Origin: Candidatus Versatilivorator sp.
GTDB lineage: Bacteria > Acidobacteriota > Terriglobia > Versatilivoradales > Versatilivoraceae
DNA length: 64,000 bases
Reading direction: 5' to 3'
Assembly: GCA_965207735.1 (NCBI GenBank)
Contig: OZ242296.1
Coordinates: 64,001-128,000 of the forward strand
The translations under genes were made by a program, and so were the position numbers. Shown piece by piece: positions 7,756-16,168 of the stretch. The notes under the pieces are model-generated. The model did no database searches and had not been told where the DNA came from. It saw only the letters and a list, made by a program, of their open reading frames with translations. How positions within the stretch are numbered: the first letter of the stretch is position 1; the number at the start of each line of letters is the position of its first letter.

Positions 7756-7768
7756 CCCGCATTTCTCA
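7753..7768 (+). repeat. Solo copy of the CCCGCATTTCTCA repeat end (intron target motif)
   Basis: TAGCCCGCATTTCTCA fills the whole obgE-nadD gap. Confidence 0.6.
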
Positions 7769-8454
7769 TGAATGACGGGATGGTTCGAGTCGGCTTGCTG
7801 GGAGGAACCTTCGACCCCATACACCGGGGTCATCTCCAGCTCGCTGAAGCCGCCCTCGGGGTGGCGGGTCTGGAGCGGGTCTACCTGGTGACGTCGGTGC
7901 GCCCGCCCCACAAGACTCGAAAGACCGAGGCCAATTTTCTTGACCGCCACGCCATGGTGGCTCTGGCCGCCTTGGGCCATCCCCGGCTGATTCCCTCCAG
8001 TCTGGAGTATGGCAGGGAGGGAAAATCCTACTCCGTGGACACCATTCGTCAGTTCAAGCAACGGCTTGGAGCAGCCTCGGAAGTCTTTTTTGTCCTGGGC
8101 ATCGATACCTTTCTGGACATTTCGAGTTGGAAAGATTTTGAGCGTCTGCCCCGACTCTGCCGGTTTCTTGTCTTTTCCCGCCCCGGATTCGATGACAGCC
8201 AACTGGCCCTGAGAATCCCCCGCGGATTTCTCGAGTCAGCCTGTGTGATCGACGAACGGAACCCGATATCTCTGGACCCGCATCGTCGCTGTTATTTGTA
8301 CCGTGAGTTCTCCAACGGTATCTCGTCTTCGGAAGTTCGGGAAAGGATTCGGCGCGGGCAGTCGGTGAATGAGATGCTGCCTCCAGCAGTGCTGGAATAT
8401 ATCGGGGAAAACCGTCTCTACGGAGGAAAGCGGAGAGTGGAGAGTGGAGAGTGA
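7768..8454 (+). CDS. nadD: Nicotinate-nucleotide adenylyltransferase
   Basis: GGTFDPIHRGH, PPHK, SYSVDT, ISSSEVR. Confidence 0.95.
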   Translation: MNDGMVRVGLLGGTFDPIHRGHLQLAEAALGVAGLERVYLVTSVRPPHKTRKTEANFLDRHAMVALAALGHPRLIPSSLEYGREGKSYSVDTIRQFKQRLGAASEVFFVLGIDTFLDISSWKDFERLPRLCRFLVFSRPGFDDSQLALRIPRGFLESACVIDERNPISLDPHRRCYLYREFSNGISSSEVRERIRRGQSVNEMLPPAVLEYIGENRLYGGKRRVESGE

Positions 8455-8471
8455 AGAGTGGAGAGTGGAGA
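8432..8471 (+). repeat. Heptamer tandem array (RAGAGTG)n
   Basis: GGAGAGTGGAGAGTGGAGAGTGAAGAGTGGAGAGTGGAGA overlapping the nadD stop. Confidence 0.85.
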
Positions 8472-8490
8472 TTCTGACACGAGGCCTTTC

Positions 8491-8880
8491 TTGACAATAG
8501 ACGATTCTCACCTCAGGCATGCGTTTGAAGCCGCCCGGGACAAAAAGGCGCACGATCTCATTGTTCTGGATCTCAAGGAGATGACGGCCTTTACCGATCA
8601 CTTCATCGTTTGCTCGGGCAATTCGGCGCCCCAGATCCAGGCGATTTCCAACGAGATTGAAATCAGACTGAAGAAAGTCGGGAAAACCCCCGACCATATT
8701 GAGGGCTACCGGCAGGCACAGTGGATCCTGATGGACTATTCCGAGTTCGTCGTCCATATTTTTTCTCCGGACAGGCGATCCCACTATAACCTGGAGCGCC
8801 TGTGGCGCGGCGCCAGGAGGATTGACGACTCCGCCTCCTCCGCAAGCGCACCTCCCGGTTCGCTGTCTGAAATTTCCTGA
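8491..8880 (+). CDS. rsfS: Ribosome silencing factor (iojap)
   Basis: DKKAHDLIVLDL, WILMDYSEFVVHIF, YNLERLW. The GTG at 8458 lies inside the repeat, so TTG 8491 is preferred; start uncertain. Confidence 0.92.
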   Translation: MTIDDSHLRHAFEAARDKKAHDLIVLDLKEMTAFTDHFIVCSGNSAPQIQAISNEIEIRLKKVGKTPDHIEGYRQAQWILMDYSEFVVHIFSPDRRSHYNLERLWRGARRIDDSASSASAPPGSLSEIS

Positions 8881-8914: not shown

Positions 8915-9918
8915 AACCCGCATTTCTCAGTGCGCCATGGAAAGGCGCCTTCTTCCAACGGGTGCGAAACCCGTCCAACAACTGTCGCTCCGGTTGGTAG
9001 CAGCCAGGGCGGATCATGGAGGTAACGATATGGTCTGAAGCCCTCTGGTGTCAAAGGGCCGCTTAAGGCGGTTCAGCGAGCATGCGGGCCGGAACGCGAG
9101 TGAACGTCGAGCAGGCCTCGAAACGGGCAATGCGGGGGCCGACCCACCTGAGAAATGGGGAAGGCCGAAGACGGAGGGGGAAGCGAGCGACGCGGGCACC
9201 CCTTTGGACCCGCCGGGGTAGTGGCGCTGGCACGCATGGAAGGGGAAGAAGGCAGCAACATGGGAAGCCCTGTGGGTGGTGAGGCACGCACCGAACCGGA
9301 AGCTCGCGAGAGTCAGTCTAGGCCGACAGGGTGGCGGAGAGGCCTGTAGTACCGGAGAAGCCGGGTAATACCGGTGGAGGGAAGGGGCCTCAGGTGAGGA
9401 GCGGTGACCGAAGGGGGAAGGGTCCCGGGAGTGGCGAAAGCCTGAAACCCCGACCAAAAAAGGGCCGGAGACTCCGGAAGCATCACATGCAAAAGTGAAA
9501 GGGTCGTCGGAGGAGGACGGCGTCGTCAGGGCATCAACAGGCCTGGCGGCAACCCGGGAGCGGAAGTGGATGGAGTGGGGGACGGGTGCCAATCCCATAG
9601 GAGTCGTCCACGGATGCGAGCGGGGACCTGTGTGCGAGACGCATGATCCCACTGGAGAGCCGAGATGCGGGAAAACCGCACGTCCGGTTCGGAGAGCGGG
9701 GACTGGAAACGTGATAAGGGAGCCGGACTGAGGCCCGAAGCGAAAGCGACGGAATAGCCACCGGACCCTATAGTCAACGCGCCAGTCCTCGACTCTACCC
9801 AGGGGGGCATGCCCAGCGCAGTCTGTTACCCACAAGCCCTTACCATGGATCCAATCAAAGTACTGAAGATAAACTACTTTTCGTCATGGCACCAGCGACC
9901 TGGCGAGAAATGCGGGTT
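8915..9918. mobile_element. ~135-bp MITE/REP-like element split by the intron
   Basis: Joined exons give AACCCGCATTTCTCA|CCAGG, the inverted complement (19/20) of CCTGGCGAGAAATGCGGGTT at 9899-9918. Confidence 0.75.
8930..9798 (+). ncRNA. ORF-less group II intron (IIB-like ribozyme)
   Basis: 5' GTGCG at 8930. D3-like GCGGAG...GTAGTACCGGAGAAGCCGGGTAATACCGGTGGAGGGAAGGGGCC. D5 GAGCCGAGATGCGGGAAAACCGCACGTCCGGTTC (9657-9690). D6 with bulged A at 9792 and 3' end CTCTAC. No RT ORF. Confidence 0.92.
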
Positions 9919-9924
9919 CGACCC

Positions 9925-10386
9925 ATGAAACTGATCCTGCGGTGGGTCGGGAAGACCAGAAATCCCCATCTGTCGGCACTCATCGCTGACTTCCAAGCTC
10001 GGATCGGAGCCTTGGCGGATCTGACTCTTTCCGAAGTCAAGGGCGTTGAGTTTCGGGATCCTGTCCGGGCTGTCGAGGCCGAGGGCCGACACCTGCTCAG
10101 AGGACTTGGCCGGGATGACTATCTGATTGCCATGGACCCCCAAGGCCAACCGTTGAATACGGAGGGATTTGCCCAGTTCATTGCCGATCGGAGGGAATAC
10201 TCCCTGAAGCGGATGGTGTTTGTCCTTGGGGGGCCGGATGGGTTGTCTGAGGCGGTCCGAAGCCGCAGCCAACGAGTCATTTCTCTTTCTTCCATGACCT
10301 TCAGCCACGAGATCGCGCGCTTGCTGCTGCTGGAGCAGATTTATCGGGCCTTCACCCTGGTCCATCGCATTCCCTACCACAAATAA
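9925..10386 (+). CDS. rlmH: 23S rRNA (pseudouridine1915-N3)-methyltransferase
   Basis: FVLGGPDGL, SLSSMTFSHEIARLLLLEQIYRA, PYHK. Conserved synteny after rsfS. Confidence 0.95.
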   Translation: MKLILRWVGKTRNPHLSALIADFQARIGALADLTLSEVKGVEFRDPVRAVEAEGRHLLRGLGRDDYLIAMDPQGQPLNTEGFAQFIADRREYSLKRMVFVLGGPDGLSEAVRSRSQRVISLSSMTFSHEIARLLLLEQIYRAFTLVHRIPYHK

Positions 10387-16149: not shown

Positions 16150-16168
16150 CCGGTGAGAAATGCGGGCC
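16150..16168 (-). repeat. Solo copy of the CCCGCATTTCTCACC repeat end
   Basis: CCGGTGAGAAATGCGGGCC, 16 nt upstream of the frdA start. Confidence 0.6.

Follow-up and report, generated by a model that had tools for sequence, protein, structure and literature searches.

A protein-less group II intron at one fixed base of IS1380 and MITE terminal repeats, with a domain 1 likely exchanged with RT-encoding introns

The window (the whole 64,000-nucleotide stretch of DNA that was analysed) carries an 869-nt group II intron at 8930..9798 on the + strand, which starts with GTGCG, ends with CTCTAC and lies in sense orientation with rsfS upstream and rlmH downstream. The initial annotation had proposed an ORF-less intron of this size at this place, and the sequence, Rfam and Pfam all bear it out: RF02003 (group-II-D1D4-4) matches at 8956-9099 with 80.8 bits, above its cut-off of 49, RF00029 (Intron_gpII) matches at 9655-9798 with 41.2 bits, above its cut-off of 40, and no RT-length ORF was found inside the 869 nt. 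The ATG of rlmH, at 9925, is 8 bp past the end of the MITE in which the intron sits. The features of the locus are the following.

8458..8880, + strand: rsfS, upstream gene (PF02410, E 3.4e-33)
about 8916/8917-8920, + strand: IBS2, in the 5' exon
8917..8929, + strand: end of the 5' exon, formed by the outermost 13 bp of the terminal repeat of MITE and IS1380
8923/8924-8929, + strand: IBS1, in the 5' exon
8985..8990, + strand: alpha loop, complementary to alpha-prime at 9185-9190 as read from the sequence
9124..9128, + strand: EBS2, in a single-stranded linker, by exon covariation
9132..9137, + strand: strand of an internal stem with partner 9208-9213, 4 of the 6 pairs being supported by compensatory changes
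9143..9159, + strand: Id3 hairpin, stem 9143-9146/9156-9159, loop 9147-9155
inside the Id3 loop 9147-9155, + strand: delta (C9148) and EBS1 (9149-9154/5)
9221, + strand: EBS3 (G), whose partner is the first 3' exon base, C9799
9395..9655, + strand: domain 4, approximate limits, specific to the ORF-less backbone
9657..9690, + strand: domain 5, with the AGC triad at 9658-9660, a 5-nt loop and an extra bulged A9663
9693..9796, + strand: domain 6, long, with branch A9792 predicted from the fold
9799..9916, + strand: remainder of the 131-bp MITE, with the right TIR at 9900-9916
9925..10386, + strand: rlmH, downstream gene (PF02590, E 4.7e-40), with a start common to relatives

From what is known of group II structure, we take 8985-8990 and 9185-9190 to be alpha and alpha-prime. 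The ends (GUGYG and AY), the AGC triad of domain 5, the bulged A of domain 6, and the EBS1-IBS1, EBS2-IBS2 and EBS3-IBS3 pairings, which are supported by covariation, are those of a IIB intron. In addition, alpha-prime is borne in the loop of a small hairpin (9183-9193), and this trait, together with the 5-nt loop of domain 5, corresponds to the description of IIE and IIF introns in PMC3753933. The EBS2-IBS2 covariation and the endonuclease-less RT of the related introns are two further likenesses to these classes (PMC3753933, PMC3552965), but domain 5 of most copies here has an extra A bulge (found in four of the six backbone introns aligned), and the assignment is left at IIE/IIF-like. Judged from its sequence, the 869-nt element is a IIB group II intron with IIE/IIF-like features; membership of class C (IIC) was considered and discarded, since EBS2 is present and covaries. 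The MFE fold of domain 1 taken alone is no better than those of shuffled sequences (z -0.66), the structure of this domain resting on covariation. Domain 4 contains eroded look-alikes of both ends of an RT gene. Elsewhere in the window, a short tandem repeat with a 7-bp unit lies at 8430-8470, at the nadD-rsfS border, and three further solo TIR-like sites without intron are found at 7756, just before nadD, and at 16166 and 30257.

The host of the intron in the window is a 131-bp MITE, which is a form of a 243-bp MITE with a 112-bp internal deletion and which has mismatched flanks. Removal of the intron had been proposed to rebuild a 20-bp terminal inverted repeat with a partner at 9899-9918; it does give a match at 19 of 20 positions, but the shared repeat is 17 bp, and 8915-8916 belong to the flank, other copies being flanked by a 4-bp YTAR duplication. 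This 17-bp terminal repeat is common to a 1698-bp IS1380 element and to the MITEs. The IS is present in 21 copies of 1697-1698 bp, 20 of which have a perfect 4-bp duplication, and with its transposase (NF033539, 410.6 bits) it has the properties of the IS1380 family. The MITEs comprise 36 elements of 240-260 bp and 11 shorter ones; their only notable match to the IS is the TIR, as is proper to MITEs, and the duplication is perfect in 25 of the 36 (230-265 bp class). Accordingly, of the two kinds of target first suggested for the intron, a MITE or a REP, the MITE stands, the motif being the TIR of 21 IS1380 and 36 MITE copies, while REP was rejected, as the motif is the end of these copies and not a free-standing palindrome. 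That the motif is a repeat family is confirmed by the 157 exact occurrences in the genome of the 13-mer that precedes the intron, against 0.14 expected.

The 5.26-Mb genome contains 28 near-identical copies of the intron (at least 99.6%), of which 22 are identical and six have one to three differences; these counts come from BLAST, a scan with a domain 5 pattern having missed all 28 and found 16 others. In run X1, which is possibly the source sample, the short-read depth of the intron is about 16 times that of single-copy DNA, which supports the presence of many copies, though fewer than 28. Each of the 28 copies is preceded by the same 13-mer, with a single mismatch in one case, and followed by CC, and all 28 are 13 nt inside the terminal repeat of the IS1380 element, of one of its MITEs or of a solo end. 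Introns are found in one end of 7 of the 21 IS copies (six ORF-less introns and one that encodes an RT), of 15 of the 36 full MITEs and of four of the 11 short elements, and in three solo ends, and in none of 26 elements are both ends occupied. The proposal of a multi-copy non-coding landing site is thus borne out for its multiplicity, but not in the sense of purely inert DNA, because six ORF-less copies interrupt intact IS1380 elements. In relatives, the rsfS-rlmH gap is devoid of intron in 11 genomes of the genus, measuring 3 bp in six and 34-48 bp in four and holding an intron-free MITE in one, whereas the gap with the window copy is 1044 bp, compared with 3 bp in most relatives.

Two side observations concern the neighbourhood of these ends. 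Deletion scars, in which no more of the intron follows the TIR than its first 7 bases in one case and some 20 in the other, are present in G000:C1 at 572756 (+) and 331226 (-). In addition, an IS1182-family element (13 copies, e.g. L130, G000:C1:675619-677210) is directly adjacent to the IS1380/MITE terminal repeat at 11 sites; of the TIRs on the lagging-strand template, those next to its left end have the intron in 7 of 7 cases, compared with 18 of 80 elsewhere (Fisher 8e-5). In G009 this association did not recur, none of 7 junctions being occupied, and in G011 1 of 2 is occupied; a similar junction is present in an RNA contig of run X16, and no consensus promoter was found at the IS1182 end.

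The same genome (G000) carries 15 RT-encoding relatives of the intron, 14 of them intact. One is on the same TIR (hereafter target class T1), which therefore hosts 28 ORF-less copies against a single RT copy, 13 are on a 213-copy repeat (T2) and one is on T3, a 19-copy palindromic repeat with introns at three of its 19 copies (e.g. C1:2497470), namely the RT intron, an ORF-less intron with 90% identity and a remnant of 117 nt. The remnant (L005, G000:C1:4260992-4261108) is a mini-intron made of the first 84 and the last 37 bases, which overlap by 4. T2 is a dispersed A-rich repeat with 213 sites, two of which are in the window (30096 and 43288), and it is also targeted by ORF-less introns in G004 and G008. 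In all, the RT backbone occupies the three target classes of G000 and the ORF-less backbone two of them.

Target recognition was analysed by natural covariation between intron and exon among the introns of this genome and relatives from others; the rows compared are related, so that the p values overstate. The exon tests were made without L010a, a decayed copy, and the permutations also without 17 of the 28 remaining rows, which limits relatedness. EBS1 had been placed at 9149-9156. The loop does map to Id3/EBS1 and covaries with the exon, with 54 Watson-Crick pairs at 9149-9154 against 32.7 after shuffling (11 introns, p 5e-5), but its length of 8 nt does not hold: 19 of 29 rows have a seventh pair, and T9156 closes the Id3 stem with A9146 (UA in 15, AU in 7 and GC in 4 of 29 rows), so EBS1 is 6-7 nt long. 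Two candidates had been given for EBS2. The region of 9124-9127 is confirmed, as 9124-9128 covaries with the exon (38 pairs against 30.6, 11 introns, p 8e-4; 85 against 55.8 and p 5e-5 for 24 RT-intron variants, which are the distinct EBS combinations parsed from 76 RT loci spanning several phyla); 9129-9136 is discarded, with an exon covariation of p 0.12 and most of it paired with 9208-9213 inside the intron. The EBS3/+1 pair is G/C in T1 and T2, A/T in L003 and L004 and T/A in L019 and L057, with wobbles and some mismatches in other relatives. The T1 RT sister is identical to the ORF-less copies at EBS1, EBS2 and EBS3, as the initial annotation had suggested looking for. That annotation had also named three findings that would speak against it, copies at unrelated targets, a loop that is not Id3/EBS1 and a motif that is no repeat family; each was tested, none was encountered, and its reading is supported.

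None of the 372 genomic sites that have IBS1 and IBS3 but lack the terminal CCC is occupied, compared with 24 of 60 optimal sites. A role of EBS2 in homing has been proposed from work on IIE/IIF introns (PMC3753933, PMC3552965), and the absence of introns from sites without IBS2 provides genomic support for it. Separately, we noted an A at position -15 of the 5' exon in 29 of 29 occupied and 153 of 174 empty sites, a difference that does not reach significance by itself; many distant relatives likewise have an A immediately upstream of IBS2, which is possibly an RT contact. Recognition also changes with the target. Two loci of G048 (L019 and L057) hold a 909-nt ORF-less relative in a related TIR, where the insertion point is one base closer to the outer end and EBS1 and EBS3 have shifted accordingly. 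Relatives target the ends of an IS1634 element and two other repeats, and since RT relatives are, here too, 13 nt inside the TIR of this 2.08-kb element, the lineage has been retargeted between transposon families.

Occupied sites are strongly oriented relative to replication. When the origin is set at dnaA, the lagging-strand template carries 25 of the 29 occupied sites (28 ORF-less copies and the RT sister), compared with 62 of the 174 empty ones (Fisher 3e-7), and in elements with two ends the occupied end is the lagging-template end in 23 of 26 cases. The count is 24 of 29 when the origin is set by local skew and 23 of 29 with the global skew extremes; the global skew minimum (4.5 Mb) disagrees with dnaA (3.54 Mb), the skew being reversed at about 4.0-4.5 Mb. 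This GC skew against the replichore in G000:C1 suggests an inversion. The lagging-template bias is as expected of endonuclease-less retrohoming, and the same bias has been measured for RmInt1 and RmInt2 (PMC4615759). The sister RTs are indeed 456-459 aa proteins (TIGR04416) with RVT_1 and GIIM only and no endonuclease match, and their closest named relatives are from Candidatus Versatilivorator and other Terriglobia. Of the five other genomes that hold the ORF-less form, four also have an RT sister; in the fifth, G048, with two ORF-less copies, no RT match was obtained at 1e-30 with the query used. The intron thus has the traits of a non-autonomous element, no RT ORF, an intact related RT in the same genome and a recent multi-copy spread at matched sites, and the 14 intact RT sisters could act on it in trans. 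In G011, L115 consists of RT introns in a head-to-tail tandem; such tandems are described for RmInt2 with U at EBS3 (PMC4615759).

The copies might instead stem from one or a few entries into a MITE or an IS, after which gene conversion or the IS1380 transposase would have spread the intron at the DNA level, as cargo. In favour of such a spread, two identical MITEs have the intron at the same end, and the occupied MITEs resemble one another more than expected at random (p 0.012), but this clustering fades among MITEs with perfect TIRs (p 0.13). Identical introns are present in five contexts (the two MITE ends, the two IS ends and solo ends) and in MITEs that differ at a median of nine positions, with haplotypes up to 15 positions apart, which points to independent homing. 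Moreover, transposition is not expected to produce a lagging-template bias, and the empty ends lean the other way. Cargo spread as the main route is largely refuted, and we consider it very improbable; the identical pair and the mild clustering leave room for some DNA-level copying.

Metatranscriptomes give a weak hint that the intron RNA is present. Contigs of six runs from three studies cover the intron; the MITE is nearly uncovered in five of the six and covered in X17, and in the three runs that were compared with the flanking genes, these have almost no coverage. The depth of such contigs sums organisms and is no measure of expression. No splice (8929-9799), lariat or circle joint was present among the joints listed (15 of 23; 6) for the RNA contigs.

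Full-length ORF-less relatives of the intron occur in at least five other genomes of the genus and at least one of another family (60 genomes searched, best 8 candidates per genome). Over the last 150 nt, ORF-less introns from three target classes have 97-99% identity to each other within the genus, 90% to those of G048 and only 65-68% to the RT introns of this genome. In the tree made from this region eight ORF-less rows form one clade (support 100/99), and the ORF-less intron of G047 has a separate origin. Domain 1, in contrast, groups by target, with matches of 95-99% to co-resident RT introns: that of the window intron is 95.2% identical to its own T1 RT sister and 88% to the T3 ORF-less copy, while that of the T3 ORF-less copy is 98% identical to the T3 RT intron. 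The closest domain 1 to that of the window copy belongs to an RT intron of another genome, G005 (97.3-97.6%), which counts against an exchange with its own T1 sister. A clade of ORF-less introns is rejected for domain 1 (p-AU 1.5e-10, 18 rows, without L070 and L073). Aligned with their co-resident RT introns, the ORF-less introns show two differences in the first 450 columns in G005, six in the first 400 in G000 for class T3 and two in the first 300 in G004; past these breakpoints there are 4-24 differences per 50 columns, and domain 4 differs from that of the sisters at 15-24 positions per 50 columns, which speaks against an action of their RTs in trans. The same mosaic thus recurs in the separate assemblies G000, G004 and G005, and in G008 by tree, and the three different breakpoints imply several exchange events. 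On these alignments and trees, the targeting module (domain 1) has likely been exchanged repeatedly between ORF-less and RT introns.

Another way to share a target would be through parallel point changes in the EBS sequences, or the sharing could be an artefact of mis-polished repeats, for assembly can homogenise repeats. The branch supports of the domain 1 tree are moderate (84-92), which leaves these ideas some ground, and EBS sequences are described as malleable in PMC2882425. Nevertheless, parallel changes at the EBS bases would not account for stretches of 300-450 contiguous columns with only two to six differences, which reach far past these bases, nor for an identity that stops at sharp and different breakpoints. 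Mis-polishing is disfavoured by the recurrence of the mosaic in separate assemblies and by the short reads of X1, where the contigs 9101-9260 and 9231-9800 overlap and match the intron across 9101-9800 with no difference and at equal depth (242.8 and 241.5). We consider this alternative very unlikely.

Finally, since a TIR is interrupted by an intron in 7 of the 21 IS elements and in 15 of the 36 full-length MITEs, the intron could be seen as a domesticated tool that the host has kept for disarming IS1380 and MITE ends. A similar role has been proposed for RmInt1 (PMC5894124), and the backbone is old enough to be common to another family. Yet the IS burst is recent despite the intron, because 19 of 21 IS copies are identical or one base apart, the same backbone also targets repeats that are not TIRs, and decayed copies and deletion scars exist; all these properties fit a selfish element, and domestication seems to us very unlikely.

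In conclusion, we hold it to be probable, with good confidence, that this is a protein-less intron which occupies one fixed base in the IS1380/MITE terminal repeat, likely retrohomes at replication forks with the RT of a sister intron, and likely gains new targets by exchange of domain 1. The excised intron RNA would bind the endonuclease-less RT from one of the 14 intact sister introns and reverse-splice into the single-stranded lagging-strand template, where EBS2 would pair with the terminal bases of the transposon, EBS1 with those that follow inwards and EBS3 with position +1; the inserted RNA would then be copied from a nascent-strand primer. Homologous recombination, or template switching by the RT, in the conserved region of domains 1 to 3 could move the guide module in either direction. 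An occupied TIR is split into 13 + 4 bp, and the transposase can probably not use it any more. A broader reading, for which we put the chances at about even, is that an old ORF-less backbone behaves as a parasite of parasites, which repeatedly captures the guide module of the succeeding autonomous intron, follows its helpers onto IS1380 ends and other repeats, outnumbers them there by up to 28 to 1 and splits the ends of at least a third of the transposon copies.

Parts of this behaviour have precedents. In Sinorhizobium meliloti GR4, both inverted repeats of ISRm17 are homing targets of RmInt2 (PMC4615759, PMC5894124), which is a class D intron with its own RT and seven copies, whereas here the ORF-less form is dominant, IIE/IIF-like and found mostly in MITE ends of the IS1380 family. 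The ORF-less TeI3 introns of Thermosynechococcus elongatus outnumber their RT introns and are moved in trans, and they resemble the present ones by ORF remnants in domain 4, divergence of the EBS towards new sites and a family, F4, in ISEL1 (PMC2882425). As described there, however, each EBS family of these CL/IIB1 introns is a clade of its own that does not share targets with ORF-containing families; unlike these, the ORF-less and RT introns studied here share target classes via a shared domain 1. In Hamiltonella defensa, c-Ha.de.I1 shows a gene conversion of roughly 700 bp between two intron subgroups of one genome (PMC3522654), described there as a single event that inflated a distance and not as a recurrent transfer of target to an ORF-less backbone. 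Class C introns, which are found at terminators and attC sites, likewise land on a non-coding motif that is dispersed in many copies, but they have no EBS2 and read a DNA hairpin (PMC8643678, PMC3753933), whereas here the primary sequence is read by EBS1, EBS2 and EBS3. ORF-less introns are described as rare in bacteria and as nearly always accompanied by a related RT nearby (PMC4424553, PMC2504315). In the open-licence literature without supplements, we found no report of introns in IS1380/MITE ends or of domain 1 exchange with ORF-less introns; such cases may be present in intron databases and supplementary tables.

Homing into IS ends and borrowing of an RT are therefore each already known, from RmInt2 and T. 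elongatus, respectively, and by itself the claim of the initial annotation would be a good new example of them. What appears to be new, from the comparison of sequences, is the likely recurrent exchange of domain 1 between ORF-less and RT backbones. The presence in one genome of three target classes, two backbones and many empty control sites makes the system unusually testable, and the compact 869-nt scaffold, with its natural target variants, may be of use for engineering. If domain 1 does move between backbones, group II introns would have a natural route of retargeting in one step. They would thereby bypass the loss of splicing that is to be expected when the EBS changes base by base, and the non-autonomous ones could in this manner persist across species.
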